DNA of 61,172 nucleotides from Candidatus Nomurabacteria bacterium (GCA_943350445.1 CALRAE010000003.1:1-61172); one strand, 5' to 3'. Positions 8,099 through 55,459 are shown, numbered from the stretch's first letter. The notes: a model not told the origin generated them from the letters alone. A program made the numbers and translations.

Positions 8099-8140
8099 CT
8101 TTTGATTTTGACTAAATAAAAAAGATGCTATAATCGAGTT

Positions 8141-8950
8141 ATGGACATCAAGGATCTAAACAAACCACAATTGATCCTACTCGCGGTACTTTTGAGTTTT
8201 GTGACTTCTATCGCGACGGGTATAACAACAGTTACGTTGATGCAACAAGCACCAAAGTCCTTTACTGCACCTATAAACCGTGTCGTTCAACAAACAATTG
8301 AGAAAATACAACAAGTCGAAGGTAAGACCACAGTCCAAACAGTGATTGTGAAAGAAGAGGACTTGGTGGTAGATGCTATTGCGAAAAACAAATCAGTGAC
8401 ATTTACTATTACCAAGGAAGTTTTAGATGCAGAAGGAAAAAATGTTGAAGTTTCTGTCGGTAAAGGTTTTGCAGTAAATGCTGATGGCACTATCGTCGTG
8501 GATGGTAATCTAATTTCAGAGAAACAAGTATATTATGTAAAAAATGAGAGTGGTAAATTTAAGGCAGATTATGTTTCTACAGACAAGGCTGGCTTTTCTT
8601 TTGTAAAAATAGGGGCTGCGGTAAATGGCACAGACAAGCTTGTGGTCACAGTGCCTATCTTCGGAGATTTGGAGAAAATGAAAATAGGTCAAAAGATTTT
8701 AGTGTTGGGCAACACTATCGCTGCATCTATTTTTGAGGGGAACAAAAATCTGAATGTGAGTATCACAAAAGGTAGTGCAGGAGGGGTAGTACTCAATCTA
8801 GACGGGGAAGTCATAGGTATTGCTTTGTTTGGAGATGGCGCGAACTTCGCTTCGATCAATAGTATAAATAGTGCTTTAAAACCTTCTCTCGATCCTGCGA
8901 CCAGTATGACTGCATCTCCAGTACTTGCACCAGCTACTTCTACACCATAG
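8141..8950 (+). CDS. membrane-anchored trypsin-like (HtrA/S1C-type) domain protein, probably non-catalytic
   Basis: N-terminal TM helix. S1C-like blocks GKGFAV..DGTIVV and GSAGGVVLNLDGEVIGIA, but the triad positions are substituted (see findings). No PDZ domain. Confidence 0.6.
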   Translation: MDIKDLNKPQLILLAVLLSFVTSIATGITTVTLMQQAPKSFTAPINRVVQQTIEKIQQVEGKTTVQTVIVKEEDLVVDAIAKNKSVTFTITKEVLDAEGKNVEVSVGKGFAVNADGTIVVDGNLISEKQVYYVKNESGKFKADYVSTDKAGFSFVKIGAAVNGTDKLVVTVPIFGDLEKMKIGQKILVLGNTIAASIFEGNKNLNVSITKGSAGGVVLNLDGEVIGIALFGDGANFASINSINSALKPSLDPATSMTASPVLAPATSTP

Positions 8951-9001
8951 ATAATGTTGTGCTTGACAGGTAGTGTATAATGAAAAAATAAACAAAAATA
9001 T

Positions 9002-11707
9002 ATGCCACCATTAAATAAATTTACAACCAAAGCCAAAGATGCCATCAAGAGAGCTCATGAGCTCGCTATTGAGCGTGGAGTGAACCATGTTTCCTCAGTG
9101 CATTTGCTCGCAGCGCTACTCATCCAAGAAGAGAGTATGGTGAATTCAATTTTAGATAAATTGGAAATAGACACGATGCTCCTTACTGACTCTGTTTTGG
9201 AATTAATAGAATTACCAGAGACTCACACCACTCTTTCTCCTTCATATCAGATATATCTCAATCCAGATCTTGCCCAAGTAATAGAACAATCAGCCAAAAT
9301 AGCGGAGTCCATGAAAGATGACTTTGTTTCTACTGAGCATCTATTCATAGCTATACTAGAAGTGACTTCTGAGGCACGTGAGACTTTAGCACGATTTAGA
9401 ATCCACAAAGACTCAGTTGTGAAAGTAATCGAAGAACTTCGCAGCCAAAATATCACTGATGTAACAGAACCAAAGAAATTTAAATTAATTTTGAAATACA
9501 CTCGCAATCTGACAAAGCTAGCCAAGGAAGACAAACTCGACCCAGTTATCGGCCGTGATAGTGAAATCATGCGCATCATGCAAATTCTTTCAAGAAGGAC
9601 CAAAAATAATCCAATTCTCATCGGTGAAGCGGGTACAGGCAAGACAGCGGTGGTGGAAGGACTCGCACAAATGATCGTAAAGAATAATGTTCCAGAATCT
9701 TTAAAAGACAAAGAGCTTGTGTCGCTTGATTTAGGGCTACTTGTCGCTGGTACCAAGTATCGTGGAGAGTTTGAAGAGAGATTGAAAGGCATCATGAAGG
9801 AAATTGAACGTTCAGATGGTAAGGTTATTATCTTTATCGATGAGATACACACCATCGTCGGTGCTGGCGGTGCTGAGGGCTCAATGGATGCTTCAAACAT
9901 GTTGAAGCCTGCTCTTTCTCGTGGAGAACTCCGAGCTATTGGTGCGACGACTTTACGAGAATATCAAAAACACATAGAGAAAGACCCAGCGCTGGCTAGA
10001 CGCTTTCAGCCTGTATATATAGATGAGCCTAATATTGAAGACGCTGTGGCTATACTTCGTGGACTAAAAGAAAAGTATGAACTTTTCCATGGTGTGCGTA
10101 TTACAGATGACGCCATCGTATCTGCGGTCAATCTTTCTGCTCGATATATCACAAACAGATTCTTGCCAGACAAGGCGGTGGACTTGATAGACGAAGCTTC
10201 TTCTTCACTCAAGATAATGTTGGAAAATAAACCACCTATTCTAGAAGATGCACATAGGAAAATAATGCGTTTAGAAATTGAAAAAGAAGCTCTAAAAAAA
10301 GAGATATCTAGTTTGGCTGGGGAGGTAAGTAAAGAAGATAAAGAAAAACAAAAAGAATTAAAAAATAGAATCAAAGAGGTGGATAGTGAAATAGGCAATT
10401 TGCATGAAAAAACAAAAGAGCTCGAATTAAAGTGGCAAAATGAAAAGACAATTGTGGTAGAGATACGTGCTATCAAAAAAGATCTAGAAAGTCTGCGTCT
10501 GGAGGCTGAGAACGCTGAGATGAAGTCGGATTTGTCTCGCGCGGCAGAGATACGCTACGGTAAAATTCCAAATCTAAAAAAAGAACTTGAAACCAAACTT
10601 TCACGATTAAAGAAACTACAAAAATCACGCCGAATTTTAAAAGAAGAGATTACTGCTGAAGACATCGCTGAGGTTGTTGCGCGTTGGACTGGTATACCAC
10701 TCACCAAGATGCTCGAAGAAGAACGTGCAAAACTTGAGAAGATGGAATCAGAATTGAGCAAGAGGGTGATGGGTCAAGATGAGGCCATCAAGCGCGTGTC
10801 AGACGTCATCCGACGTTCTCGTGCTGGTATTTCTGATCCGAATAGACCTATCGGCTCTTTCATCTTCCTTGGTCCGACCGGTGTCGGTAAGACTGAGCTT
10901 ACAAAGGCCCTTTCTGCTTTTATGTTCAACGATGATCGTGCGATTATCCGTGTCGATATGTCTGAATATATGGAAAAGCATTCGATCTCAAAACTTGTCG
11001 GTTCTCCACCTGGATATGTCGGTTATGATGAAGCAGGACAACTCACAGAGGCTGTCCGACATCGCCCCTATGCAGTTATACTTTTCGATGAGATAGAAAA
11101 AGCTCATCCCGATGTCTTCAATATGCTTTTGTCTGTGATTGATGAAGGTAGACTAACTGATGGAAAGGGAAGAGTGGTGAATTTTAAAAATACCATCATC
11201 ATTCTCACTTCCAACATTGGTTCACAATTTGTAGAAAAGATGGAATCAATCGGGTTCTCTAATAATTCCAAAAAAGACGATTACAACAACATGAAAGATA
11301 AAGTGATGGAAGCGTTGAAAGACAATTTTCGTCCAGAGTTTTTGAATCGTTTGGATGAGACTATTGTCTTTGATGTGTTGAGTGAACAAGCAATAGGTGA
11401 GATAGTTAAGTTGAGGGTACAAGTGGTCAAAGACCGCTTGGCCGGTAAAGGTATTGGTTTTGAGATTTCTATGGAGGCCTTGGTGTACTTGGCAAAAGAG
11501 GGTTACAATCCGCATTATGGTGCAAGACCACTGAACCGTTTGATTCAAAATAAAATCCTAAATCCCGTGGCTTCTTATATTATTTCAAATGGTGTGAAGA
11601 AAGGGGACATGGTGAACGTGACTGTAAAGAACAACGAGCTTGTTATCGAAAAGAAAAGAGAAAAGGTAAAAAGCTCTATTCAAATGAGGACTAAGGAGGG
11701 GGTGTAG
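9002..11707 (+). CDS. clpB: ATP-dependent chaperone ClpB
   Basis: 901 aa with a Clp N domain, two AAA+ modules ([16 protein letters not shown]) and a long coiled-coil middle domain. Confidence 0.95.
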
Positions 11708-12783: not shown

Positions 12784-12838
12784 ATTTTCTATTTAGAATA
12801 AGTCTTGCATTTAAAAAATAAAAATATAAAATAGAACC

Positions 12839-13354
12839 ATGAAAAATCAAATAAAAATGCGTCCAGATGTTGCTTTGCTTATTACCAGACTTATTATCGG
12901 TGGAATTTTCGTTTTTAGTGGGTGGGCTAAGGTTTCCGATATGACGGGGACATTTGGTATGTTTAGTCAGATGGGGATACCGGTTTTCTTGACATACATA
13001 GTATCATACGGAGAATTGATAGGTGGGGTCATGTTGGTGCTCGGTTTGTGGACAGAGCTCGCAGCGCTTTTCCTGACTATTGTAATGCTTGTGGCTTTTT
13101 ATCTAACAAGGCACTTTGGTTTTCAAGCGTTTAGTATGCCGCTCGCGACACTCGCCGGACTTTTAGTAATTATTGGATGTGGGCCTGGAAAATATAAAAT
13201 GAAAGAAATGTGTGGAGGACACTACATTTGCCGTGGGGGTTGTAAGGGGGTCTCAAAAGTAAAAGGCATTTGTCAGGCATCAAACTGTGCAAGTCGTGGC
13301 CAAGATCTCTCTATGTGTAATTGCGGAGATAGCCTGCATAATTATTTTAAATAG
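12839..13354 (+). CDS. DoxX-family membrane protein with a Cys-rich C-terminal extension
   Basis: DoxX-like N-terminus LLITRLIIGGIFVFSGWAKV and four TM segments. Residues ~121-171 contain 7 Cys. Confidence 0.7.
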   Translation: MKNQIKMRPDVALLITRLIIGGIFVFSGWAKVSDMTGTFGMFSQMGIPVFLTYIVSYGELIGGVMLVLGLWTELAALFLTIVMLVAFYLTRHFGFQAFSMPLATLAGLLVIIGCGPGKYKMKEMCGGHYICRGGCKGVSKVKGICQASNCASRGQDLSMCNCGDSLHNYFK

Positions 13355-20363: not shown

Positions 20364-21419
20364 CTAAAAAATCCTCAAAAAAAGATTAAAGAGGTTTATG
20401 ATAGGGGACAAAATATAGTCGAACCACTTAGGTTTGTATGATTTGTAATCAAACAATGTAGCAGACTTTTTCCATTCTGTAGATATCTCTACTAGTTCTG
20501 ATACTACTTTTTGTTCTTTAAAGAATATTCCTACCTCAGAATTAAAATCGAAAGACAAGAAATCCAGGTTTTGTGAGCCCACCATAGCTTCTTTTTGGTC
20601 TATAATAATAACCTTGGCGTGATTCATTTTTTCTTCCAGATAGAATTTGACTCCCAGTTTAGATATTTTATATATGTAAAAATAATTTACTCTATCAACA
20701 ATGAAATTGTCTGTAGTTTTTGGTACTAGCACTTCAACATCAACTCCACGCAAGACTGCTTGGTGTAAAGCTGCCGACATCCAACGTTTTGGTATAAAAT
20801 AGGGTGTGATAAACGTCAGACTCGAAGTCGATTTATTCAAATATTTTTTGTAGATTTTTTTAAAATGGAATTTTGCTTTAACTGGTGAATGTTCAATGAT
20901 CCATGTGTCTGGTTTCCCTTCTTTATTTTTTTTATTTATAGATAAGAGGATAGGATCCATGCCACCAGCATTTATGTAAGATTTAGTAAATGACATGACC
21001 ACCCTCTCTACCAAGTGCCCTGTTATTTTAACCATTAAATCATTCCACAACCTTGATCTCTGGTGTAGGTTTACGCCCCCAATAAAGGCGATGCGCTTAT
21101 CTACGACTAGGACTTTGCGGTGCATACGATGGAGTAGATAAGAAAGTGAAAGTATTTCGACTCCTGAACTTTTTAATTCAGCGACTGAGCTATCTTTCAA
21201 CCCAGCACTTCCAAAAGAGTCCAGTATTAATTTCACCTGTAGTCCTTGCCCTGCTTTTTCCTTCAGTAGATTAAAAAAATTAAATTCAACCATATCATTT
21301 TCAAAAATATACATTTCTAAATATATGGATTGTTTAGCGTTCGACATACTTTCAAACATTACTCTCCATGCCTTTTCCGAATTAGTGAAAAACTTGTATT
21401 TCATCATGTCATTATACAC
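20364..21419 (-). CDS. phospholipase D-family protein (cardiolipin synthase-like, two HKD motifs)
   Basis: The HKD motifs are HRKVLVVD and HAKVIIID. 351 aa, with no N-terminal TM helices. Confidence 0.8.
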   Translation of the reverse strand: MYNDMMKYKFFTNSEKAWRVMFESMSNAKQSIYLEMYIFENDMVEFNFFNLLKEKAGQGLQVKLILDSFGSAGLKDSSVAELKSSGVEILSLSYLLHRMHRKVLVVDKRIAFIGGVNLHQRSRLWNDLMVKITGHLVERVVMSFTKSYINAGGMDPILLSINKKNKEGKPDTWIIEHSPVKAKFHFKKIYKKYLNKSTSSLTFITPYFIPKRWMSAALHQAVLRGVDVEVLVPKTTDNFIVDRVNYFYIYKISKLGVKFYLEEKMNHAKVIIIDQKEAMVGSQNLDFLSFDFNSEVGIFFKEQKVVSELVEISTEWKKSATLFDYKSYKPKWFDYILSPIINLFNLFLRIF

Positions 21420-21573: not shown

Positions 21574-21630
21574 AGCATTTTAGGTTTTATTTATTTTTCA
21601 AAATCTTTTGAAATGTGCTATAATAGAGTC

Positions 21631-28413: not shown

Positions 28414-28442
28414 CAGTCTAGTATGTATGCTATAATGTATAT

Positions 28443-36050: not shown

Positions 36051-36094
36051 TTTTTGATTATACCTTTTTTATTATTATTTGGTATAATGTTGAA

Positions 36095-36397
36095 ATGAAT
36101 AAAAAATATTGGCTTAGAGTTGCGCTATCTCTCGTTGTTGTGCATCTAATATTATTGATAATTACATTCATTATATCCTCTAGCTCAACGGGGCCAGAGG
36201 CAGGCTTTGTGTGGATCTGGATATCACTTCTGGATTTACCAGTCTTAACTTTGGCGAAGAGTTTTATTTCTGGGAGTTTTGGGCTTAAGGAAACAGCAAT
36301 TTTAGTGTTTGTTGCAGGTTCGATCCAGTGGTTTTTGATTGGTGGATTTCTCGGATGGCTTTACGGAAAAATTAAAAATAGAAATAAAGTGATATAG
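36095..36397 (+). CDS. small membrane protein, paralog of 37719..37997
   Basis: The two share the ends MNKKYWLR... and ...LGWLYGKIKNRNKVI. Three TM segments. Confidence 0.6.
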   Translation: MNKKYWLRVALSLVVVHLILLIITFIISSSSTGPEAGFVWIWISLLDLPVLTLAKSFISGSFGLKETAILVFVAGSIQWFLIGGFLGWLYGKIKNRNKVI

Positions 36398-36404
36398 TAT
36401 ATAC

Positions 36405-39331: not shown

Positions 39332-39339
39332 TTAAACAG

Positions 39340-41542: not shown

Positions 41543-42541
41543 TTATATTTTCTTAGCTTGATAATCCGGAGCATTTTTAAGCAAGGCTTCTATCTCCGAC
41601 TGAGACAGAAGGCCTGCTTGCGCTCCCACTTTTTGCACTACAGACATAGAATTTACAGCTCCCCACGCTAGGGCTTCGGGTAAAGTTTTACCTAGAATAA
41701 ATGCAGAAACTACAGTAGAAGCAAAAGCATCTCCAGCGCCAGTGCGTTCGTATGGAGGTTTTGGATCTGGATAGGGTTTTATGAACCAATTATTTGTACC
41801 GTCATATGCGTATGCACCCTTTGGTCCATCGGTTATTACAATATTTTTCGGACCTAATTCGTGGATTTTTTTTAATAATTCCACTGCGTCTACATTTTCT
41901 ATGCCAAGTATTTTTTCGGCTTCTTCTACATTACAGAAGAAGAATTCTGATTTATCATAGAGCTTGATAAGTTTTTCTTTACCTAATTTTATTTCATTCT
42001 TGCCGGGTTGGAATGCCAGTTTGATATTTGGATGGTTCTCTAAATATTCTGCGACAATGTTATGAAAAGGGAAGGCGGTTTCGCTTATGGAACTAAAATA
42101 AATCCATTTTGGTTCTCCGACCTCAGGTAAACTGTAATCATATTTTTCGTGTTTAATTAAAATAGTGCGTTCTGGTGGATACCAGAGTACATAATGATAA
42201 TTGGTTTTGATGCCTTGATTGATTTTAATAAAATCCGTTTTCACTTTATTGTTTTGCAAAGTCTTCAAACAATCTTTACCATTTTCATCATCTCCAATAT
42301 TTGATACTAAAGCTGAAGCAAGCCCGAGTCTGGCTGCGGATACGGCCGCATTCGCTGCATTTCCAACTGCGGGAAGTATCAAGACTTCTTCGTAAGGCAC
42401 TTTGTCAGCAAATTGCATACAGATTTTATATTCTGATGTGTCTGGCGCGCCTACAATGTTTGCTTCTTTTAATTTTATGAATGCATCTACCACAGTATCC
42501 CCGATTGCCAAGAAATCTATTTTGTTTTCTTTTTCAGTCAT
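41543..42541 (-). CDS. PfkB-family carbohydrate kinase
   Basis: C-terminal motif TGAGDAF. Start moved to ATG 42541, 6 nt after TATAAT. Confidence 0.8.
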   Translation of the reverse strand: MTEKENKIDFLAIGDTVVDAFIKLKEANIVGAPDTSEYKICMQFADKVPYEEVLILPAVGNAANAAVSAARLGLASALVSNIGDDENGKDCLKTLQNNKVKTDFIKINQGIKTNYHYVLWYPPERTILIKHEKYDYSLPEVGEPKWIYFSSISETAFPFHNIVAEYLENHPNIKLAFQPGKNEIKLGKEKLIKLYDKSEFFFCNVEEAEKILGIENVDAVELLKKIHELGPKNIVITDGPKGAYAYDGTNNWFIKPYPDPKPPYERTGAGDAFASTVVSAFILGKTLPEALAWGAVNSMSVVQKVGAQAGLLSQSEIEALLKNAPDYQAKKI

Positions 42542-42602
42542 GATATTATTATACATTATAAATATTTTTCCGCCAAAGGTGACCAGTCTAGGCTAAAAAA
42601 TT

Positions 42603-44200: not shown

Positions 44201-44220
44201 TTATGTGGTATATTGTTTGC

Positions 44221-44436
44221 ATGTTTCAAAATTTTTTAATTAAAAAAATGCTTCGCACGCAGGGCGTGCCAGAAGCGCAAATAGATATGTTTATAAGCAT
44301 GATGGAGAAGAATCCTGAGCTTTTTAAGACTATTGCCGAGGAAGTGCAAGTAAAAATAAAAGGAGGAATGGATCAGCAGACTGCTTCAATAGAAGTAATG
44401 AAAAAACACGAAGAAGAACTTAAAAAATTGGCTTAG
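44221..44436 (+). CDS. small hypothetical protein (71 aa)
   Basis: Start moved to the ATG 6 nt after TGgTATATT (44209-44214). The sequence is MFQNFLIKKMLRTQGVPEAQ.... Confidence 0.5.
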   Translation: MFQNFLIKKMLRTQGVPEAQIDMFISMMEKNPELFKTIAEEVQVKIKGGMDQQTASIEVMKKHEEELKKLA

Positions 44437-44463
44437 AAGTTGAAATTTTGCTATATTTTCTCT

Positions 44464-45282
44464 ATGTCTTTAAAGATTGGAATTGTCGGTTTACCAAACG
44501 TGGGGAAGTCCACGCTTTTTAATGCGCTTACAAACAAAAGTGTTCCTGCAGAGAATTACCCTTTCTGCACTATTGATCCATCTGTGGGAATTGTTCCCGT
44601 GCCAGACGAAAGACTTACAAAACTATCTACTATTTCCAAATCTAAAAAAACAGTGCCTGCTGTCGTGGAGTTCGTAGACATCGCAGGGTTGGTCAAGGGT
44701 GCATCAGAAGGGGCGGGTCTTGGTAATAAATTTCTGTCGCACATTAGGGAAGTAGATGCGATTATTGAAGTGGTGCGAATTTTTGAAGATCCAAATACGA
44801 TTCATGTTCACGATAAAGTGGATCCGCTTTTTGATATCGAGGTTATAAATTTTGAATTAGACAAGGCTGGGATTAAAAAACCAACCTTATATGTCTTAAA
44901 TAGTTCTGAGGCAGCAGAAAATGTCAAAAAAGATTTTATATCAAAACTTAATGGTCCCTATATTGAAGTCGATGCAGTTTTCGGTACAGGACTCGATAAA
45001 CTTATTAAGGCAGGCTACGATTTGTTAAACTTGATCACTTTTTTTACCACCGGTGAAGATGAATCAAGGGCTTGGACGACACTTCGTGGAGCGACAGCGC
45101 CATTTGCGGGCAAATCCATACACACTGATTTTCAACAGAAGTTTATTCGTGCGGAAGTTGTGTCTTATGATCAACTAATCGAGGCAGGGAGTTTTGTAAA
45201 AGCGAAAGAAAGAGGTTGGGTGCGAACAGAAGGTAAAGAATATATTGTTAAAGATGGTGATGTTATTGAGTTTCTGGTATGA
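44464..45282 (+). CDS. ychF: ribosome-binding ATPase YchF (short form)
   Basis: [23 protein letters not shown] and a C-terminal TGS-like block [10 protein letters not shown]. 272 aa. Start lies 6 nt after TGcTATATT. Confidence 0.85.
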
Positions 45283-45378
45283 ACTCAATGACCCTGAGTA
45301 TGTCGAATGGGTAAATTGAATTTTTAATATAAAATTCGTAGATACTGAGCAAAACGAATATATGGTAGAATTCTTAAT

Positions 45379-46281
45379 ATGAAAAAAGAAATTGAAATTT
45401 TTATTTCAAAAGAGTGGCCAGCCTTACTGACGGATAAAAATGATTACGAGCTTCTCGACACCGGTGGTCGAGAGAGACTCGAGCGTTTTGGTAAGTATAC
45501 TTTTGTGCGTCCTTATAGTGATGCTGTTTGGGAAAGGACTTTATCAAATGAAGAGTGGAATAAAGCTGATGGTAAATTTTGGAGTACCAAGGAGGGTGCT
45601 AAGGGTGGATGGAATATGACGCACAAAGTTGAGTTTAAATGGGAAATGTCTTACAAAGATATAAAATTCCTAGCTTCGCCTACTCCATTTCGACATCTAG
45701 GATTTTTCCCCGAGCAGGTAAGTCATTGGGATTTTATAGAAAATACCATAAAAAATGCTGGACGACCTATCAAATTCTTGAATTTATTCGGTTACACTGG
45801 TGTGGCGAGCCTTTTTGCTTTGCGTGCGGGGGCAGAGGTTACACACTTAGATGCTTCAAAGCAAACTCTCGATTGGGCCAAAGAGAATCAAAATGTAGCG
45901 GGTTTAGATAAATTACCCATGCGGGTGATAGAAGATGATGCTATTAAATTTCTCGAAAGAGAAGAAAAAAGAGGTAACAAGTATGATGCCATAATAATGG
46001 ATCCGCCGAAATTTGGTAGAGGACCAAATGGGGAAGTTTGGAAAATAGAAGAAATGTTGCCGAAACTTCTATCCGCAGTAAGAAAAGTTTTAAGCGATAA
46101 ACCACTTTTTGTTATTTTGACTTCCTATGCCATTGATTCTTCTTCGCTTTCTCTCGGATACGCACTAGAAGCAATGATGAAAGATTTTGGTGGGGATGTT
46201 CAGGCTGGAGAGTTGTGTATCTTAGAAAAATCAAATAATCGCATTATTTCGCTTGCGAACACTGCCGTCTGGAGTGTATAA
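45379..46281 (+). CDS. class I SAM-dependent methyltransferase (RlmI/YwbD-like)
   Basis: Motif I-like LNLFGYTGVAS and the DPPKF motif. Confidence 0.6.
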   Translation: MKKEIEIFISKEWPALLTDKNDYELLDTGGRERLERFGKYTFVRPYSDAVWERTLSNEEWNKADGKFWSTKEGAKGGWNMTHKVEFKWEMSYKDIKFLASPTPFRHLGFFPEQVSHWDFIENTIKNAGRPIKFLNLFGYTGVASLFALRAGAEVTHLDASKQTLDWAKENQNVAGLDKLPMRVIEDDAIKFLEREEKRGNKYDAIIMDPPKFGRGPNGEVWKIEEMLPKLLSAVRKVLSDKPLFVILTSYAIDSSSLSLGYALEAMMKDFGGDVQAGELCILEKSNNRIISLANTAVWSV

Positions 46282-46288
46282 TTGATAT

Positions 46289-47332
46289 ATGTTAAATTAT
46301 TTGCCCTATATTCTCTATCTTTTTGTTCCACTCATAATCTTGGTCGCCATCGTCGTGGGTATCGTTGTATTTATTAATAATCGTAATAACACAAATAACA
46401 TGGATCCAACTCAAATAAAACCAAAAGCAAGCGCAAAAGATTTCTTTCTAAATCTTGGAGCTTTTATTTCGTTATATGTCTTAGTAGGTAATCTTCTAGG
46501 TTTATTGTTTACTATCATTAACACAGCTTATCCTAAAATCACTAACGGTTATAATTATTTTGGAAGTTCGTCAATCAGTTGGCCTGTTGCTACTTTAGTT
46601 GTACTCCTTCCAATTTTTATTCTTCTAATGTGGTTTTTAGAAAAGAGTTACAGAGTGGAGCCAGAAATGCAAAATAGTCTCATTCATAGAGGTCTTACAT
46701 ACATGACTCTTTTTATTTCCGGTTGTGTTGTTGCGGGGGATTTAATAACAGTTGTTTATTATTTTATTGATGGACAAGAATTGACCACAGGCTTTCTTTT
46801 GAAGGTCATAGTTCTACTTGTTATCTTTACTAGTCTATTTATCTACTACATTTCTGATCTCAGAAAAAAATTAACAAAAAACTCTAGAATAGTTTGGAGA
46901 ATCACTGCGTTAATAATCGTCATAGGATCAATTGTCTGGGGTTTTGCTGTTCTTGGTTCACCTCGAACACAGAGGTTATATAAATATGATGAGCAGAAAG
47001 TAAGTGACCTACAAAATATAAATAATCAAGTTACAAGTTTTTATTCTAATAAAGGAACTTTGCCACAAGACATAAGAGAAATAAATTCATATCAGAATAA
47101 TTATTATCCTGTTAAAGTTGACTCTCAAACTCAAAAATCATACGAGTATATGAAGACTTCTAACACAACATATAATCTCTGTGCAGAATTTAATAAAGAA
47201 TCAGTTGCTGATAAAAATAGTACGAACTTCTTATTCATATCCAATGGTGGATGGACACACCCCGCTGGGCACTATTGTTTTACAGAGACCATAAATCCAA
47301 ATATGTATTCTAAGGAAGTGCCTAGATACTAA
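46289..47332 (+). CDS. multi-pass membrane protein (possibly DUF5671-like)
   Basis: 347 aa with about 6 TM segments and a soluble C-terminal domain. The family name is tentative. Confidence 0.5.
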   Translation: MLNYLPYILYLFVPLIILVAIVVGIVVFINNRNNTNNMDPTQIKPKASAKDFFLNLGAFISLYVLVGNLLGLLFTIINTAYPKITNGYNYFGSSSISWPVATLVVLLPIFILLMWFLEKSYRVEPEMQNSLIHRGLTYMTLFISGCVVAGDLITVVYYFIDGQELTTGFLLKVIVLLVIFTSLFIYYISDLRKKLTKNSRIVWRITALIIVIGSIVWGFAVLGSPRTQRLYKYDEQKVSDLQNINNQVTSFYSNKGTLPQDIREINSYQNNYYPVKVDSQTQKSYEYMKTSNTTYNLCAEFNKESVADKNSTNFLFISNGGWTHPAGHYCFTETINPNMYSKEVPRY

Positions 47333-47400
47333 TAAAATATTTCTTTGAAATACAAAAAACCTCTTTGCATAAAGGCGGTTTTTTGTTTATTATGTAATGT

Positions 47401-49842
47401 ATGAAAGAATACGACCATAAAAAAATCGAAAAAAAGTGGCAGACTATTTGGGAGAAAAATGGGGTCTACTATGCAAAGGACCCAAAAAATAATAAGTCTA
47501 AGAAGCCAAAATATTATAGTCTAATTGAATTCCCATATCCGTCCGGAGACGGTTTGCATGTGGGGCATCCACGGCCGTATATCGGGATGGATATAATTTC
47601 TAGAAAGAGAAGGTTGCAAGGCTTTAATGTCTTGTATCCAATAGGTTGGGACGCTTTTGGTTTGCCGACGGAGAATTACGCTATAAAGACCGGCCTTGAT
47701 CCACGAGTGGTCACTAAGAAAAATACTGATACTTATCGTCGACAAATAAAATCACTCGGCATATCTTTCGATTGGTCACGAGAAATAAATACAACTGACC
47801 CAAAATACTATAAATGGACGCAGTGGATATTTTTGCAATTCTTGAAAAAGGACCTAGCATATAAGGCAAAGATGACTATAAATTGGTGTCCGAAGGATAA
47901 AATTGGACTTGCAAATGAAGAAGTTGTAAATGGATGTTGCGAACGCTGTGGGACGGTGGTAGAAAAAAGGGAGAAAGAGCAATGGATGCTCGCCATTACC
48001 AAATATGCCGATAGGCTTTATAAAGATTTGGATGATGTGGATTACCTACCACAAATAAAACTCGGACAGAGGAATTGGATAGGGAAGAGTGAAGGGGTAG
48101 AAGTGGATTTTAAAATAGTTTCCGCTAGGCAAGGCCTTACGGAGGAGAGTGCAAAAGTGTTTACCACTCGGCCAGACACTATTTTTGGGGTGACTTATTT
48201 AGTGCTTGCGCCGGAACATAATTTAGTTCAAAAATTAAAATCTGAAATTACTAATTGGGATGAAGTACTACGATATATCGTAGCAAATAAAAAAAAGACC
48301 GATGTTGAACGTACCGCAGAAAATAAAGAAAAAACAGGTATAGAACTCAAGGGTATAAAAGTCATAAATCCAGGCAATACACAGGCGTTGCCTGTGTGGA
48401 TAGCGGATTATGTCCTTGCAGGTTATGGCACGGGAGCCATCATGGCTGTGCCAGCAGATGATGTTCGTGATAAGGAGTTCGCAGAAAAATATAAATTACC
48501 AATTGTTGAAAATTATGAGAAGGCGGGTTTTGAAGATTACGGAAAAAGAATTACGAAATTTAAACTTCGAGACTGGATATTTTCTCGTCAGCGATATTGG
48601 GGTGAGCCTATACCTGTGATAAATTGCGAAAAATGTGGGCTTGTGCCAGTGCCGGAAAAAGACTTGCCAGTGGAGCTACCAAAAGTGAAGAATTACCAGC
48701 CGACGGATTCAGGGGAATCCCCACTTGCAAACATTGCAAAATGGGTAAATGTGAAGTGTCCGCAGTGTAGGGGTAAGGCAAAGAGAGAAACTGACACGAT
48801 GCCAAACTGGGCGGGGAGCTCTTGGTATTATCTTCGGTATATTGATCCAAATAATAGTAAACAGTTTGCGTCACCCAAGAATCTCTATTATTGGTCGGAT
48901 TCTAAGCTAAAAGCTGGTCTAGTGGATTGGTATAACGGAGGCAACGAGCATACTACTCTTCACCTTTTATATTCTCGTTTTTGGCATAAATTCCTATATG
49001 ATTTAAAGCTTGTACCCACAAATGAACCGTATGTGAAGCGTACTTCACATGGCATGATTCTCGGTGAAGGGGGAGTAAAAATGTCAAAATCACTTGGTAA
49101 TGTGATCAATCCAGACGACATAGTAAAAACATATGGCGCAGATACACTGCGTGTCTATGAGATGTTCATGGGGCCCTTTAATCAATCTGTCGCTTGGTCT
49201 ACAGAGAGTATTATAGGTTCACGCAGGTTTATAGAAAAAGTTTGGCGGATAGGACAGAAGACCATCACTTCTTCCGTTCCGAGAAGTGTTCCAGAGAAAA
49301 ATTCTCCCACCTTCGCCCTCGGAGACAAGAGGACAGGACTGCTTCAGCAGGTGATACACGGCTCCTTGAATTTATCTCCGGAACACCTCTCGAGGCTTCT
49401 CCACAAAACAATAAAAAAAGTATCAGAAGATATAGAGGGGATGCATTTCAATACAGCGATCTCTTCAATGATGATTCTCGCAACAGAGATGGAAAAAAAA
49501 CAAAATATTTCTATTGAGGATTTCAAAATGTTTTTGCAAATACTTTCACCATTCGCTCCACATATTACAGAGGAACTTTGGAGCTCGCTTGGAGAAAAAA
49601 AGTCCATAAATATTTCAGAGTGGCCAAAATGGGATGTAGCTTTAATGCAAAATGAAGAGATAAAAATTATTTTACAGATAAATGGCAAGATAAGAGCAGA
49701 AATTTTCATACAAGCTGAAGAAAAAGAAGAAAATATTAAAGAGAAAGCGCTCAAAAATGAGGTTATTTTAAGGCATATGGCTGGTAAAGATGTGAAAAGG
49801 GTGATTTATGTCAAAAATCGACTTATCAACATAGTGGTTTAG
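47401..49842 (+). CDS. leuS: leucine--tRNA ligase
   Basis: HVGH (HIGH) and KMSKS motifs, plus an editing-domain insertion. 813 aa. Confidence 0.95.
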   Translation: MKEYDHKKIEKKWQTIWEKNGVYYAKDPKNNKSKKPKYYSLIEFPYPSGDGLHVGHPRPYIGMDIISRKRRLQGFNVLYPIGWDAFGLPTENYAIKTGLDPRVVTKKNTDTYRRQIKSLGISFDWSREINTTDPKYYKWTQWIFLQFLKKDLAYKAKMTINWCPKDKIGLANEEVVNGCCERCGTVVEKREKEQWMLAITKYADRLYKDLDDVDYLPQIKLGQRNWIGKSEGVEVDFKIVSARQGLTEESAKVFTTRPDTIFGVTYLVLAPEHNLVQKLKSEITNWDEVLRYIVANKKKTDVERTAENKEKTGIELKGIKVINPGNTQALPVWIADYVLAGYGTGAIMAVPADDVRDKEFAEKYKLPIVENYEKAGFEDYGKRITKFKLRDWIFSRQRYWGEPIPVINCEKCGLVPVPEKDLPVELPKVKNYQPTDSGESPLANIAKWVNVKCPQCRGKAKRETDTMPNWAGSSWYYLRYIDPNNSKQFASPKNLYYWSDSKLKAGLVDWYNGGNEHTTLHLLYSRFWHKFLYDLKLVPTNEPYVKRTSHGMILGEGGVKMSKSLGNVINPDDIVKTYGADTLRVYEMFMGPFNQSVAWSTESIIGSRRFIEKVWRIGQKTITSSVPRSVPEKNSPTFALGDKRTGLLQQVIHGSLNLSPEHLSRLLHKTIKKVSEDIEGMHFNTAISSMMILATEMEKKQNISIEDFKMFLQILSPFAPHITEELWSSLGEKKSINISEWPKWDVALMQNEEIKIILQINGKIRAEIFIQAEEKEENIKEKALKNEVILRHMAGKDVKRVIYVKNRLINIVV

Positions 49843-49878
49843 TTGCTTTTTGAAATTGACATATAGTATAATTGACGG

Positions 49879-51990
49879 ATGAAAACAAATATATTTGATA
49901 GGATTTCTTTCGTGTCATTATTTTTAGTAATAGTTTTACTCCCAGTTTTCTTTTTACCTTTTACTAATATTCCTATCGAAACTTCTAAAGGTTTACTTTT
50001 GGTGGTCGGACTCACTGTCTCAGTTATTTGTTGGGGTCTAGCTCGTTTTTTTGACGGAAAAATAACCCTTCCAAGATCTGCAACATTACTTGCGGGCGGA
50101 GGAGTTGTGCTTGCTTTTCTTTTGTCAGCTTCTTTCATGAAAGATTCCGAGGTTGCTTTCTTTGGTACAATGTTTGATGTTGGCACCTTCTGGTTCATTT
50201 TTGCTGCTTTCTTGTTGATGTTTATGTCTTCAATCATTTTACGAGATCCAAAGAAGGCTAAGATAGTTTTATTTGGTTCAATATTGTCTGGTGCTGTACT
50301 TTTGGTTTTCCAGGCTGTTCGTTTATTGCTACCCGATATCTTATCTCTTGGAGTTTTAGCTTCTAAGTCTGACAACCTCTTGGGTTCATGGAATGCACTT
50401 GGTATTTTCGCAGGTTTTTCAGCTTTGATGTCTCTTCTTATTGTTGAATTTTTCCCAACTACAAAGGTAGAGAAACGGCTACTTCAAGCATTAGCAGTGC
50501 TTTCAATGATAGTTATCGCAGCTGTCAACTTCCAGTTCGTGTGGCAGCTTCTTGGTATTTTTGCTCTAATTATTTTCGTTTACAAAATTTCTATTTCTTT
50601 AAAGGAAAAGAATACAGAAAGTGCTAGTAATACCAAAGATAATTTTCCAGTTTTTTCTTTTGTGATAATTATGGTTACGCTCTTATTTTTCATGTCTGCA
50701 CGATTTATTGGAGGTATCTTGCCAAACTATTTAGAGGTCCCAAATATTGAAGTTAACCCTTCTTTTAATGCTACAATGGGTGTGACTAAGTCTGTACTCA
50801 CAGAACACCCTATGTTTGGTATGGGTCCAAATAAGTTCGGGGCTGCATGGGCAATGTATAAACCAATCAACATAAACAATACAATTAATGGTAATGAATA
50901 TTGGGGCACTACTTTTAATTCTAGTTCAGGTTTGATTCCAACTTTTGCGGCTACTACAGGTGCTGTAGGCATACTTACCCTCCTCACTTTCTTCATTTTA
51001 TTGATCGTGGCTGGTGTTAAGTCTATTTTCTCTAGTATCAAGAATGGGTCAAACTGGGAGACAATGGCATTTTTCGTACTATCTCTCTACTTATTTGTTT
51101 CCTGTTTCTTCTATTCGGCAGGGGCGGTAGTGTTCTTGTTGGCGCTTGCTTTTGCAGGTATTTTCATCGGACTCTCTTCTTCTTTACACCACAAGGGAGA
51201 AATTTCATTCTCTTACTTAAATGATCATAGAAAGAGTTTCTTTTCGATATTGTTTATTGTTATCATGTTGATAGCAGCAGCAGCTGTTTCATTTAAATAC
51301 ATAGAACGTCTCGTGTCTGTCTCATATTTTTCCAAGGCTGTTACAGCGTCAGATATATCACTTGCAGAATCTTCGATCTCTAAGGCTCTCACATTTCATC
51401 AGAATGATTTGTATTTGCGTACTTATGCACAGGTGTACCTTGTTAAATTAAATTCAATTGTAGCTAAAGATGCTACCACCCTTTCTGACGAAGACAAAGC
51501 AACACTACAATCTAGTTTAGAACAGGCAGTAAGTGGAGCCCAGCTCGCGATTAATTATGATCCTACAAATTATTTGAATCACCAAGCTCTTGGTTCTATA
51601 TATCAAAGACTTGCTTCTGTTGGAGTCAAAGATGTATATAGTAAATCAATTGAATCTTATGCTAAAGCTTCTGCTTTAAACCCAAAGAATCCAGGTATCA
51701 AATTAAACATGGCTAGCGTATCTATGGCTGACAAGAAAGTCAAAGAAGCTAAGGAATATGCTAGTGCTGCGGTTGCCCTCAAGCCAGATTATATCGATGC
51801 TTATATTATTCTATCTCAGATCGCAAAAGAAGAGGGTGATAATGCTGCTGCGCTTTCTTATGCACAGACTGCTCTATCTATTTCTCCAACCAACAAAGAC
51901 TTGATAAAGTACGCTGACTCTTTCAAGGTTAGTACTCCAGCTCCTACTTCAGATTCAATCAAAGCTTCAACTACTACCAAAAAGAAATAA
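49879..51990 (+). CDS. O-antigen ligase/polymerase-like polytopic membrane protein with a C-terminal TPR domain
   Basis: About 12 TM segments followed by TPR-like repeats (AKASALNPKNP..., AVALKPDYIDAY...). Confidence 0.55.
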   Translation: MKTNIFDRISFVSLFLVIVLLPVFFLPFTNIPIETSKGLLLVVGLTVSVICWGLARFFDGKITLPRSATLLAGGGVVLAFLLSASFMKDSEVAFFGTMFDVGTFWFIFAAFLLMFMSSIILRDPKKAKIVLFGSILSGAVLLVFQAVRLLLPDILSLGVLASKSDNLLGSWNALGIFAGFSALMSLLIVEFFPTTKVEKRLLQALAVLSMIVIAAVNFQFVWQLLGIFALIIFVYKISISLKEKNTESASNTKDNFPVFSFVIIMVTLLFFMSARFIGGILPNYLEVPNIEVNPSFNATMGVTKSVLTEHPMFGMGPNKFGAAWAMYKPININNTINGNEYWGTTFNSSSGLIPTFAATTGAVGILTLLTFFILLIVAGVKSIFSSIKNGSNWETMAFFVLSLYLFVSCFFYSAGAVVFLLALAFAGIFIGLSSSLHHKGEISFSYLNDHRKSFFSILFIVIMLIAAAAVSFKYIERLVSVSYFSKAVTASDISLAESSISKALTFHQNDLYLRTYAQVYLVKLNSIVAKDATTLSDEDKATLQSSLEQAVSGAQLAINYDPTNYLNHQALGSIYQRLASVGVKDVYSKSIESYAKASALNPKNPGIKLNMASVSMADKKVKEAKEYASAAVALKPDYIDAYIILSQIAKEEGDNAAALSYAQTALSISPTNKDLIKYADSFKVSTPAPTSDSIKASTTTKKK

Positions 51991-53670
51991 ATGGAGAAAA
52001 TATTCAGGATCTTCAGTAAAGAATCTGTAAACATAAATCAAGCAGCGCTTCTTTTGGGTTTTTTCACACTACTTTCTCAGATTTTAGCGCTGTTTCGTGA
52101 TCGTTCGATTGCGCACTTCATTGGTCCGTCATCGTCTCTAGACGCTTATTATGCTGCTTTTCGTGTTCCAGATCTTATATTTATTTCTATTGCTTCTCTT
52201 GCCTCTGTCACTGTGCTAGTGCCATTTATTACAGCCAAGATGAATGGTGATACAGTGACAGAAGAAGCAAAAAAATATTTAAACGATATTTTCACTGTTT
52301 TTCTTCTAGTTATGGTTGTCGTCTCTGTCTTTGCTTTCTTTTTAATGCCATATTTAGCTCCACTTATTGCTCCGGGATTTACACCTGTTTTTCAAGAAAA
52401 ATTAATAATGCTTTCGCGCATCATGTTGCTCTCTCCAATACTTTTAGGACTTTCGAATTTGTTTGGAACAGTCACTCAATTATTTAGAAAGTTTTTCATG
52501 TATGCCTTAAGCCCTATTTTCTACAATATAGGCATTATTATCGGTGTGGTATTTCTCTATCCTGCTTTAGGGATATATGGACTTGCCCTCGGGGTGGTGC
52601 TTGGTGCATTTATGCACTTCGCCATACAGGTCGTAGCATCAAAGTCGTGTGGATTTGCGCCCAGATTTTCTTTCCCTATTAATTATGCAGATATAAAAAG
52701 TATTGCTCTGACGTCACTTCCTAGGACTCTTGGGCTTTCTTTTAACAATATTGCTCTGATCTACATTATCGCTGGAGCTTCTTTTCTAAAAAGTGGCTCT
52801 ATTTCAGTATTCAACTTTGCTTTTAATCTTCAGTCGGTACCGCTTAATATTATTGGTATTTCATATGCAGTGGCAGCTTTTCCAACTTTAGCCAAGTCTG
52901 TGTCTTTGGGTAAAATGGAAGAATTTAAAATGCACTTAAAATCTGCTGCGCGGGCAATAGTCTTCTGGTCTTTACCAGTTATATTTCTCTTTATTGTGGT
53001 TCGTGCACAGATCGTGCGCGTGATACTCGGGTCAGGGGGGTTTTCTTGGGAGAATACCCGTCTGGTGGCAGCATGTCTCGCCATTTTCTCTGTATCTATC
53101 ATGGCACAAGGGATGATCACCCTTCTTTCTCGTTCTTATTATGCGGTGGGTAATACCAAGCGTCCGCTAATGATTAATTTATTTTCTTCCGTGGTGATTA
53201 TAGTTTTGGCTTATTCTCTTACTCATTTATTTCAGAATGCTGATATGTTTCGTTATTTCATCGAAGCTTTGTTTAAGGTGAGTGACATACCAGGTACAGC
53301 AGTGTTGATGTTGCCGCTCGCTTATTCTGCTGGTACTATTTTAAATTTTATTTTGCAATGGTTCTTTATTAAGAAAGATTTTATGCCAAAGGAAACATTC
53401 ATTTCTAAAACCTTTTTCCAAAGCCTAGGAGCTTCTTTCTTTTTAGGGCTTGTCTCTTACATTGGTCTAAATATACTATCTCCAATTTTTGGCACAACCA
53501 CACTTATTGGGGTTTTCCTGCAAGGCTTCATTTCTGGTATTTTTGGCATATTGGCAGCTATTTTAGTTCTTTATTTACTTAAAAATGAAGAACTGAGCTA
53601 CTTGTTTGAAACATTTAAAACTAAATTCTGGCGCGCAAAGGTTGTCGCTCCATCTCAAGAAGGGCTTTAA
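51991..53670 (+). CDS. murJ: lipid II flippase MurJ/MviN
   Basis: 559 aa and polytopic, with the N-terminal block LLSQILALFRDRSIAHFIG....DAYYAAFRVPD. Confidence 0.85.
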   Translation: MEKIFRIFSKESVNINQAALLLGFFTLLSQILALFRDRSIAHFIGPSSSLDAYYAAFRVPDLIFISIASLASVTVLVPFITAKMNGDTVTEEAKKYLNDIFTVFLLVMVVVSVFAFFLMPYLAPLIAPGFTPVFQEKLIMLSRIMLLSPILLGLSNLFGTVTQLFRKFFMYALSPIFYNIGIIIGVVFLYPALGIYGLALGVVLGAFMHFAIQVVASKSCGFAPRFSFPINYADIKSIALTSLPRTLGLSFNNIALIYIIAGASFLKSGSISVFNFAFNLQSVPLNIIGISYAVAAFPTLAKSVSLGKMEEFKMHLKSAARAIVFWSLPVIFLFIVVRAQIVRVILGSGGFSWENTRLVAACLAIFSVSIMAQGMITLLSRSYYAVGNTKRPLMINLFSSVVIIVLAYSLTHLFQNADMFRYFIEALFKVSDIPGTAVLMLPLAYSAGTILNFILQWFFIKKDFMPKETFISKTFFQSLGASFFLGLVSYIGLNILSPIFGTTTLIGVFLQGFISGIFGILAAILVLYLLKNEELSYLFETFKTKFWRAKVVAPSQEGL

Positions 53671-53701
53671 TATATTGGTTTTTTCTGTTAGTATGTAAAG
53701 T

Positions 53702-55459
53702 ATGCTTTTTGGCAAGATTTTTCATTATTATTGGCAGCAAATCAGGAAATACAAGTTGTCCTTTTATTTTACATTCATTACTTATGGCATAGCGGTGGTT
53801 ATTTCGAGTATTATAAATCCATTCTTGTATAAGAATGTTATTGATCTAATTTCTAGCTCAGTGCCGAGCATCGAATTAAGCGAAGAATTATTTCGTTATG
53901 TTTTTTTTATTGTGTTTTCGGTGGTCGGTTATAATATTTTTTATAGAGCAGGAGATTACTTAATCACACACTTTCAATCAAATGTAATTAGGGAAATACA
54001 CAATGATACCTTTAGCCGTTTAATGAATCATTCGTATCGTTTTTTTTCCAATCACTTTTCTGGAAGTCTTGTCTCAAAGTCAAAAAGATTTGCTGCTTCT
54101 TTTGAGAGAATAAGTGAGGTTATAAGTTTCAATCTTTGGTTTACATTTATACATTTCACTGGGGTGTTTGTCATTTTATTTTTTAATGCTCCATTGGTGG
54201 CCTATATAATTTTAGGTTGGGCGATAATCTATATTCTCATTACGTTGTTGTTTATTAATAAAAAAGTCAGGTATGACTTGATGGAAGCCGAAGCGGATTC
54301 CAAGGTAACTGGACATTTTGCAGATTCTTTTACTAATATTTTAAATATCAAAATATTTTCCAATAGAGAAAATGAGTATGCATCTTTTAAAGATATAACT
54401 TTTGATGAATATGGTAAACGTGCTAAAGCTTGGGGTTTTGCGAATTTTCAGAATACTATTCAGGGTATTTTAATGGCGATACTTCAAATCGTGGTTCTTT
54501 TTGTTGTAGTAAAGATGTGGCTTGCTGGATCTATCACTACTGGTATGGTTGTTTTAATTCAAATTTATATGTTTGCCTCCCTTGATCATTTATGGGAATT
54601 AGGAAAATCAATGACAAGGTTGTTTAAGTCGATGGCCGATGCTAAAGAGATGGTCGATATTTTTGAAGAAAAGTCTGATATTGTAGACGTGGTAAATCCC
54701 GAAAAATGTATAATCTCAAAAGGTAATATAAGTTTTAAAAAAATAAACTTTGAATATATAAAGGATTACGCAGTTTTTAATGATTTTGAGTTTAATATAA
54801 AATCTGGAGAAAAGGTGGGCCTGGTGGGGCATTCTGGTTCTGGTAAATCGACAATTGTTAAAATACTTTTGCGTTTTGCTGATGTTAAAGGTGGTGAGGT
54901 ATTGATTGATGGACAAAATATAGCCAGTATTAGGCAGGATGATCTACGGCAGACCATATCTTATGTACCACAAGAGTCGATCTTGTTTCATAGGAGTATT
55001 AAGGAAAATATTGGTTATTCAAAAAATGGTTCAAGTAATGAAGAAATTATTGAGGCAGCTAAAAAAGCTCATGCTCATGAGTTTGTTTCAAAATTACCAC
55101 ATGGATACAATACTTTTGTTGGTGAGCGTGGGGTTAAACTTTCAGGTGGGGAACGTCAGAGGATAGCGATAGCTAGGGCGATGTTAAAAGATGCCCCGAT
55201 TTTAATTCTCGATGAAGCGACAAGTTCACTGGATAGTATTAGCGAGTCATATATTCAAGATGCCTTCAATGAGCTGATGAAGGATAAGACCACGATAGTC
55301 ATAGCTCACAGACTTTCGACCATTCAAAAGATGGATAGGATTGTGGTTCTTGACAAAGGTAAAATTGTCGAAGAAGGAACACATAAAGAACTTCTAGAAA
55401 AAAATGGTTTTTATGCTGAGCTTTGGAGTCATCAGACAGGAGGATTTTTGGAAGAGTAA
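53702..55459 (+). CDS. ABC transporter, fused permease/ATPase (MsbA-like exporter)
   Basis: Six TM helices plus an NBD with [17 protein letters not shown] and ILILDEATS. Confidence 0.85.
   Translation: MLFGKIFHYYWQQIRKYKLSFYFTFITYGIAVVISSIINPFLYKNVIDLISSSVPSIELSEELFRYVFFIVFSVVGYNIFYRAGDYLITHFQSNVIREIHNDTFSRLMNHSYRFFSNHFSGSLVSKSKRFAASFERISEVISFNLWFTFIHFTGVFVILFFNAPLVAYIILGWAIIYILITLLFINKKVRYDLMEAEADSKVTGHFADSFTNILNIKIFSNRENEYASFKDITFDEYGKRAKAWGFANFQNTIQGILMAILQIVVLFVVVKMWLAGSITTGMVVLIQIYMFASLDHLWELGKSMTRLFKSMADAKEMVDIFEEKSDIVDVVNPEKCIISKGNISFKKINFEYIKDYAVFNDFEFNIKSGEKVGLVGHSGSGKSTIVKILLRFADVKGGEVLIDGQNIASIRQDDLRQTISYVPQESILFHRSIKENIGYSKNGSSNEEIIEAAKKAHAHEFVSKLPHGYNTFVGERGVKLSGGERQRIAIARAMLKDAPILILDEATSSLDSISESYIQDAFNELMKDKTTIVIAHRLSTIQKMDRIVVLDKGKIVEEGTHKELLEKNGFYAELWSHQTGGFLEE

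Follow-up and report, generated by a model that had tools for sequence, protein, structure and literature searches.

The window analyzed here, the whole 61,172-nucleotide (nt) stretch of CALRAE010000003.1, is bacterial DNA with 38% G+C that encodes ClpB, DnaE, LeuRS, LepA, MurJ, YchF, GAPDH, Pth, and similar proteins. This report concerns the start codons of its genes, many of which lie just downstream of a hexamer resembling the -10 box of a bacterial promoter. By its proteins, the window is assigned to the genome of an uncultured member of the Saccharibacteria (TM7), part of the candidate phyla radiation (CPR), or Patescibacteria. In the one-genome-per-species set of GTDB, the best relative of its LeuRS belongs to a Candidatus Saccharibacteria metagenome-assembled genome (MAG), with 65% identity, and the next CPR matches belong to Saccharibacteria, Paceibacteria, and Taylorbacteria. 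The NCBI MAG contig CALRHJ010000001.1 (GCA_943359465.1) is base-identical to the window over more than 10 kb, and exact-protein matches put most of the window on this contig and on the ENA contig k141_2176656. Rfam detected no rRNA in the window, and none in the DNA flanking it or in the LeuRS loci.

Hexamers at a fixed distance from start codons

An earlier note on this DNA had listed 20 starts with a -10 hexamer 6 or 7 nt upstream and had read them as leaderless starts. In a curated set of 59 genes, a TAnnnT hexamer ends 6 nt before the start codon in 19 genes and 7 nt before it in 7. This arrangement, hereafter leaderless geometry, was therefore present at 26 of the 59 starts, versus 12 of 316 internal in-frame ATGs (Fisher P = 4e-15). 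With a strict box, defined as at least 5/6 identity to TATAAT, the counts were 24/59 and 5/316 (P = 3e-17), placing the rate at control ATGs between 1.6 and 3.8%. Strict boxes were found 19 times at 6 nt, 5 times at 7 nt, 3 times at 8 nt, and at most 3 times at any other spacing. The distance from TGNTANNNT to the downstream ATG likewise peaked at 6 to 7 nt in the window, with 20 of 163 motifs at these spacings versus about 2 to 3 for each other distance. TATAAT followed by ATG after 6 to 7 nt was observed 13 times, versus 2.56 ± 1.64 times in dinucleotide shuffles, none of which (0/100) reached 13. These counts confirm that the observed geometry is real. The individual sites are collected in Table 1.

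Table 1. Start sites with their upstream hexamers, together with one coupled start and two counter-examples
Position	Strand	Upstream elements	Spacing to start	Start	Gene or remark
1746..1769	divergent	abutting boxes AGTATA/TATTAT	6 nt each	ATG 1745(-), ATG 1770(+)	24-bp intergenic region
6503-6526	divergent	near-identical to 1746..1769		6502(-), GTG 6527(+)	
8126..8143	+	TGcTATAAT	6 nt	ATG 8141	trypsin-like protein, 269 amino acids (aa)
12827..12841	+	TTGCAT as -35, TAAAAT	6 nt	ATG 12839	DoxX protein
21402..21416	-	GTGTATAAT	6 nt	ATG 21404	PLD-like protein
21616..21633	+	TGcTATAAT	6 nt	internal ATG 21631	SIMPL, 224 aa
24492..24509	+	TGgTACAAT	6 nt	GTG 24507	cupin/mannose-6-P isomerase, 116 aa; promoter within upstream open reading frame (ORF)
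28428..28445	+	GTGACA, 18 nt, TGcTATAAT	6 nt	ATG 28443	hibernation factor (HPF)
32170..32265	- (divergent pair)	TGcTATATT	7 nt	internal ATG 32172	signal peptidase
32170..32265	+ (divergent pair)	TGtTATTAT	6 nt	internal ATG 32263	Pth
36048..36097	- (divergent pair, 44 bp apart)	GGTATAAT	6 nt	ATG 36050	DnaE
36048..36097	+ (divergent pair, 44 bp apart)	TGgTATAAT	6 nt	ATG 36095	
36390..36407	+	TGaTATAGT	6 nt	ATG 36405	GAPDH; TAG in hexamer is the upstream gene's stop
39324..39342	+	TGgTATAAT	7 nt	ATG 39340	transketolase, N-terminal half; TAA in hexamer is the upstream stop
42539..42553	-	TTGGCG, 17 nt, TATAAT	6 nt	ATG 42541	PfkB kinase, 332 aa
44206..44466, first gene	+	TGgTATATT	6 nt	ATG 44221	conserved 71-aa protein
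44206..44466, second gene	+	TGcTATATT	6 nt	ATG 44464	YchF
45363..53704	+				five consecutive starts with leaderless geometry (next five rows)
	+	TGgTAGAAT	7 nt	45379	
	+	TATAAT	6 nt	46289	upstream TAA within hexamer
	+	TATTAT	7 nt	47401	LeuRS
	+	TATAAT	6 nt	49879	
	+	TGtTAGTAT	7 nt	53702	
51988..51993	+			51991	MurJ; coupled start TAAATG, gap 0
8976..9004	+	GTGTATAAT	20 nt	ATG 9002	ClpB, counter-example; predicted A-rich leader of ~13 nt, no Shine-Dalgarno sequence
57857		TGcTATAAT	18 nt	57857	counter-example as ClpB; no Shine-Dalgarno sequence

For each of the 20 starts listed earlier, the upstream 45 nt were inspected. Seventeen open real genes, their ATG or GTG following a clear TAnnnT, most with TGn, at a distance of 6 or 7 nt (8141, 21631, 24507, 28443, 32263, 36095, 36405, 39340, 44221, 44464, 45379, 46289, 47401, 49879, 53702, 32172 on the minus strand, and 42541 on the minus strand), and three are weaker. 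At 28413 (minus strand), the hexamer at 6 nt is CATACT rather than TAnnnT, but TTGCAT lies 17 nt upstream; the site is weaker yet plausible, and a 70-aa ORF is publicly called from this ATG. The boxes at 18578 and 21448 are perfect, but they precede 41-aa ORFs that have no Pfam match, public gene call, or homologue in the loci compared, and they may drive something else. At least seven boxed starts, some within the span given in the earlier note and others ahead of it, had not been listed: 1745(-), 1770, 6502(-), 6527 (GTG), 12839, 21404(-), and 36050 (minus strand, DnaE). The eight starts that had been placed at internal ATGs (21631, 28413, 32172, 32263, 39340, 42541, 44221, and 44464) are correct in geometry.

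The positions of these starts were compared with other evidence on the N termini. Position 1 of the Pfam profile aligns to residue 3 of Pth (32263) and HPF (28443) and to residue 4 of YchF (44464), GAPDH (36405), and LepA, and transketolase and LeuRS begin within a few residues of the profile start. YchF orthologues start at the same residue (one reads MSLSIGIVGL), and the 71-aa protein (44221) is kept in three CPR loci, with its N terminus the same to within two residues. Public gene calls share the starts 21631, 24507, 28413, 28443, 32172, 32263, 39340, 42541, 44221, and 44464. Disagreement is seen at 46289 (46400 in the public call, 37 codons late), 6527 (called at 6575), and 21404 (called at 21407, one codon earlier); the GTG at 6527 is backed by a paralogous or orthologous copy whose alignment runs from residue 1. 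The starts re-called in the earlier note therefore agree with Pfam N termini, orthologue N termini, and public gene calls. Standard gene callers already reproduce most of the start-prediction rule that it proposed, though they do not get every one of these starts right (46289). Because the longest ORF begins upstream of 8 of the 26 starts with leaderless geometry, Saccharibacteria MAGs would benefit from start calling with a model that has the -10 box at 6 to 7 nt.

To characterize the boxes, the 26 sites were aligned on the hexamer, with all other TAnnnT hexamers as background. A TG extension (T-15/G-14) was present in 13 of 26 sites versus 5.6% of the background (P = 3e-10), and a TTG at the -35 position, 16 to 18 nt upstream of the hexamer, in 8 of 26 versus 6.7% (P = 2e-4). 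In addition, the base preceding the start codon is a pyrimidine in 20 of 26 sites, so that the first base of the codon, A or G, stands in the usual Y(-1)R(+1) context of a transcription start. The TG extension, the -35 TTG, and this context read as properties of a sigma-70 promoter, not of a ribosome-binding site. Of the 34 genes that are divergent or lie farther than 12 nt from the gene upstream, 21 have a box, versus 5 of the 25 tightly spaced ones (gap of 12 nt or less). Four pairs of divergent starts (1745/1770, 6502/6527, 36050/36095, and 32172/32263) are only 24 to 90 bp apart. In three cases the stop codon of the upstream gene lies in frame inside the downstream hexamer, at 36393-36398 (TA[TAG]T), 39327-39332 (TA[TAA]T), and 46277-46282 (TA[TAA]T), and thus one hexamer would end one gene and launch the next.

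The same arrangement was found in DNA outside the window. In the same genome beyond the window (the tail of ENA contig L083), TGnTAnnnT stands at 6 to 7 nt in 4 of 10 new genes, and one more carries TATAAT, at 8 nt. When one rule-free ORF pipeline was applied to all sets, a strict box at 6 to 7 nt preceded 38% of the window's ORFs, 23% of the ORFs from three Saccharibacteria LeuRS loci, 15% in Paceibacteria/Taylorbacteria, and 11% in 755 kb flanking Saccharibacteria 16S genes, where spurious ORFs within rRNA dilute the share. In 73 non-CPR loci, the share was 2%. Every CPR set showed the peak at 6 to 7 nt (6 to 8 nt in Paceibacteria), and A/T-rich Firmicutes controls showed no peak at 6 to 7 nt. 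Upstream of the 269-aa gene in a relative (L086; ~80% average amino acid identity), TTGACT, TATAAT, and the 6-nt gap are kept, and the spacer and discriminator differ. The YchF orthologues of another Saccharibacterium, a Taylorbacterium, and a Paceibacterium carry TATACT at 7 nt, TGcTATAGT at 8 nt, and TATCAT at 8 nt, respectively.

Anti-Shine-Dalgarno pairing and the remaining genes

The use of Shine-Dalgarno (SD) sequences was measured as the duplex energy of the anti-SD CACCUCCUUU with the 20 nt before the start, at a threshold of -3.45 kcal/mol or stronger. An annotation-free profile of GGAGG-to-ATG spacing was too noisy, with the 16S loci swamped by the rRNA itself, and duplex energies were used instead. 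The threshold was reached at 7 of 59 starts (12%) versus 26% of random 20-mers and 38% of the sequences before internal ATGs. In 70 non-CPR loci, the same measure scored 97% of the LeuRS starts as SD-preceded; among CPR LeuRS starts it was 1 of 7, a weak match. The few candidates in the window are 40186 (GAGGT/AAGGT, free energy of -7.0 kcal/mol), 15750, and 555(-) (AAGGA). The absence of SD sequences described in the earlier note is thus essentially borne out, with anti-SD pairing upstream of starts below the random background.

The earlier note had also called for inspection of the 3' end of the 16S rRNA. This was done for the phylum by scanning metagenomes for the TM7-specific 16S signature GGAGGGGATGATGTCAGGTC, which yielded 120 loci, 83 of them reaching the 3' end. 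All 83 of these tails keep CCTCC (CCUCC in the rRNA), and 77 read GGATTACCTCCTTTCT. Because the 16S rRNA of the phylum retains the anti-SD, the loss of SD sequences would be a matter of usage and not of the rRNA. One study (PMC9297842) reports loss of the anti-SD itself only for a Parcubacteria subgroup, with which the kept CCTCC in TM7-signature 16S agrees.

Besides the 26 genes with leaderless geometry, 19 of the 59 lack a box and have their start codon between -14 and +12 nt relative to the stop of the gene before, at junctions such as ATGA, TAATG, and TAAATG. One further gene has a box at 8 nt, three (ClpB at 9002, 57857, and 58934) have a strong box 18 to 33 nt upstream and a short A-rich leader without SD, and 10 fall in none of these classes, several of them in a higher-GC patch at 17.8 to 20.2 kb. 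The 19 starts close to an upstream stop lack a box at 6 to 7 nt, and SD sequences are absent from them save for two or three weak exceptions, an arrangement that suggests translational coupling. The earlier note's description of leaderless initiation as the apparent default mode is fair, with leaderless geometry at 44% of all genes and 65% of those not tightly coupled, but the geometry is not universal.

Eight operon-internal genes (2225, 3741, 23732, 25969, 38633, 40186, 51991, and 55468) had been described as starting by stop/start overlap or after A/T-only spacers. Their junctions are as described and have no GGAGG at a functional distance, but 40186 carries the SD candidate given above, and 23732 is a possible artefact. 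The poly-A run at 23721-23729 reads A9 in the window versus A10 in a public MAG (L215), which encodes a 421-aa cytidylyltransferase-HAD fusion where the window has two overlapping ORFs (23226-23735 and 23732-24520). Since A10 fuses both ORFs, the start at 23732 is undermined; the difference may stem from an indel in the assembly, from variation among strains, or from a slippery site.

Predicted leaderless initiation and its alternatives

All computational tests run agree with leaderless transcription combined with SD-independent translation, which is thereby supported. We consider it highly probable that these Saccharibacterial genes are started leaderless from sigma-70 -10 boxes, with the other genes mostly coupled and SD sequences unused. 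Most transcription units would be driven by housekeeping sigma-70-type promoters, often with an extended -10 (TGnTATAAT) and a weak or absent -35. With the hexamer ending 6 to 7 nt before the start codon, RNA polymerase would begin at, or 1 nt before, its A or G, and the resulting mRNA would have no 5' untranslated region (UTR). By established knowledge, 70S ribosomes, or IF2 with formylmethionyl-tRNA (fMet-tRNA), bind leaderless mRNAs, for which a 5'-terminal AUG or GUG is sufficient, and cistrons farther downstream are reinitiated once termination has taken place. Here, the leaderless mRNA would presumably be bound directly by the 70S ribosome, or by the 30S subunit plus IF2, with fMet-tRNA and no SD pairing. 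Genes without a promoter of their own, which start no more than about 12 nt from the stop codon before them, would most likely be translated by termination-reinitiation, and a minority of genes would have short A/T-rich leaders without SD. We infer the positions of the transcription start sites (TSSs), the mode of ribosome loading, and the mechanism of coupling from these arrangements.

The boxes might be real but secondary promoters, with most protein made from longer polycistronic or leadered transcripts, through coupling or through internal initiation independent of SD, and leaderless mRNAs as a minor fraction, although we regard this as unlikely. Several boxes do lie inside upstream genes, and intrinsic-terminator-like sites are not enriched in the window (20 versus 15.8 in shuffles), so that read-through is plausible. 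Moreover, leadered genes without SD are present (ClpB, 57857, and 17129), and internal SD-independent initiation must therefore work in the organism. However, the closely spaced divergent pairs leave no room for another promoter or leader, the hexamer and its exact distance are conserved among relatives while the flanks drift, and the signal is strong at 21 of the 34 uncoupled genes.

It is considerably less probable that the TATAAT-like motif acts in translation, as a non-SD signal on leadered mRNAs such as an A/T-rich landing site for the ribosome or S1, and not as a promoter. The model for such a signal is group B of GeneMarkS-2 (Bacteroidetes), where the 16S anti-SD is kept, the mRNAs lack SD sequences, and the upstream regions are A/T-rich, as in the window and, for the anti-SD, in its phylum. 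This explanation would also fit the five boxes whose genes lie just -14 to +8 nt from the gene before, and a generic promoter scan that showed no enrichment. Nevertheless, the TG extension and the -35 TTG are read by sigma, not by ribosomes, and the fixed spacing of 6 to 7 nt sets a purine at +1 after a pyrimidine. Furthermore, the group B motif precedes all genes, on leadered mRNAs (PMC6028130), whereas the motif in the window has promoter features and is missing at the 19 tightly coupled genes. Finally, an origin of the pattern as a chance by-product of A/T-rich intergenic DNA beside ATGs is conceivable at 38% G+C with about 2,700 loose TAnnnT hexamers in the window, but the shuffles, the sharp peak at 6 to 7 nt only, and the A/T-rich Firmicutes controls leave it next to no probability.

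Several observations also weigh against leaderless initiation from these boxes, the reading we favor. The rule had been used in part for picking the starts of the 59 curated genes, and because of this circularity we also counted from the first start codon of the longest ORF, which gave a box at 18 of 59. A generic two-hexamer sigma-70 scan found 66 sites versus 60.8 in shuffles, without enrichment in this A/T-rich window; therefore, what carries the case is where the boxes lie relative to the start, together with the TG extension. Five boxes lie inside the upstream gene or within 8 nt of it and could be dispensable if their genes were also translated from read-through polycistronic mRNA. Fourteen of the 59 genes are leadered, near-leaderless, or outside both modes, and some of these would need SD-independent internal initiation, which goes beyond the favored model. 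The box rate was lower, at 2 of 11 genes, in a pilin cluster of the same genome (the tail of L210), and a preprint on the TM7x transcriptome does not discuss TSSs or UTRs.

Among known systems, the geometry in the window corresponds exactly to a type already described. In group C of GeneMarkS-2 (Actinobacteria and Deinococcus-Thermus), a Pribnow box lies 6 to 8 nt before the first genes of operons, the predicted leaderless share is 25 to 50% of transcripts, and the remaining genes have SD sequences (PMC6028130). As in Mycobacterium, Streptomyces, Corynebacterium, and Deinococcus-Thermus, the mRNA is predicted here to begin at the start codon, GTG is used besides ATG, and the signal is missing before operon-internal genes. 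These organisms are, however, mostly high in GC, unlike the window with 38%, and the share here is higher, at about 65% of uncoupled genes. The extended -10 is frequent in the window, and its remaining genes have essentially no SD sequences and so depart from group C in this feature. Archaeal group D (haloarchaea and Sulfolobus) is similar in its leaderless majority (60 to 80% of operons), low SD use, and tightly coupled downstream genes, but it has TATA and B recognition elements ~26 nt upstream and another RNA polymerase and other initiation factors, whereas the window has a bacterial -10 at 6 to 7 nt. Termination-reinitiation in compact operons resembles the 19 SD-less genes at -14 to +12 nt from an upstream stop, a likeness drawn from geometry alone. 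Lineages that have lost the anti-SD, such as the Parcubacteria subgroup, lack CCUCC and thus differ from the TM7-signature tails.

The mechanism would thus be a known one of the group C type, in a lineage for which no published description was found; gene finders evidently model the signal already. The search for descriptions of leaderless initiation in Saccharibacteria or CPR, made by full-text literature queries and in papers that included those on GeneMarkS-2, on CPR ribosomes, and on the TM7x transcriptome (a preprint), a 2025 NAR paper on promoters, and a 2024 PNAS perspective, found none, the GeneMarkS-2 supplementary lists lying outside its scope. The only TSS set, for TM7x, was inferred from RNA-seq coverage and is not discussed as leaderless (PMC12641261). 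A role of YchF in modulating leaderless translation is reported (cited in PMC12641178), and YchF itself has leaderless geometry here at 44464.

More broadly, Saccharibacteria, and perhaps much of the CPR, may use an almost purely two-mode system of initiation, a proposal that we judge evenly balanced between true and false. In such a system, genes would be either leaderless, with an extended -10 abutting the start, or reinitiated within about 12 nt of a stop, with SD pairing effectively abandoned and the anti-SD retained. If true, it would be the bacterial parallel to what is seen in haloarchaea and the third leaderless-rich bacterial lineage after Actinobacteria and Deinococcus-Thermus, the first with low GC and one with ultra-small genomes, and it would be consistent with leaderless initiation as an old trait. 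It would also determine how expression constructs should be designed for Patescibacteria, which are newly tractable. Saccharibacteria are only now becoming genetically tractable; E. coli-style cassettes with SD leaders may work poorly in them, and TGnTATAAT-N6-ATG would be the native architecture. Removal of 5' UTRs would compact the genome, with 24 bp between divergent starts and with stop codons lying inside -10 boxes. An anti-SD that is retained yet unused raises the same question as in Bacteroidetes, namely, what purpose the tail serves.

Other features of the window

Transcription of tRNAs in the same leaderless manner was considered and rejected as a general rule, as over 12 tRNAs the -10 box lay anywhere from ~1 to 22 nt away from the tRNA. 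In a single case (L083 17132-17207, minus strand), a 203-aa ORF has its ATG one nucleotide past the 3' end of tRNA-Val(GAC); by analogy with mitochondrial "tRNA punctuation," 3' processing of this tRNA would leave an essentially leaderless mRNA. An 18-nt sequence, CATGATTTCGTAAAATCA(T/C), abuts in nearly the same form the ATGs of two unrelated genes, MsrA/PMSR at 22722 (22695-22721) and a gene for a type IV secretion system pilin-like protein (L210 ~17494-17520, minus strand), and may be a shared regulatory or processing element.

The left end of the window shows an apparent inverted duplication (1-4092 versus 4093-7690), with aminotransferase, DUF4446, IF2, and RbfA genes on either side of a tRNA-Cys (compared with loci L082/L088, L086, and L210). 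Positions 1-4221 equal a separate 4,221-bp ENA contig, whose genes are 99.6 to 100% identical to those of MAG GCA_964949345.1, a relative with about 58 to 89% protein identity. CALRHJ010000001.1, which represents the main genome, parts from the window at precisely position 4092, with other genes beyond it. The duplication was therefore rejected; most likely, contigs of two species were joined at the shared tRNA-Cys. The two IF2 proteins (2225-3739 and 4493-6043) have only 504 to 516 aa, because the long N-terminal region of E. coli IF2 is absent.

At the right end, the window (59198-61172) diverges from the contig L083 of the same genome (11342 onward) directly after a tRNA-Arg(CCU). Since the window carries a gene for a large serine recombinase past this point (59232-60920, minus strand), the segment is likely an integrative element at the 3' end of the tRNA, present in some strains only. 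The higher-GC patch (17800-20300, about 42%) contains ORFs with neither the -10 geometry nor SD sequences, including 18714 and 19135, which encode signal-peptide proteins, and may be foreign DNA or a region of leadered genes; the boxed 41-aa ORF at 18578 sits just upstream of these two. Finally, GAPDH is flanked by two paralogous small membrane proteins (36095-36397, 100 aa, and 37719-37997, 92 aa) that are 37% identical and have the C-terminal motif GWLYGKIKNRN in common.

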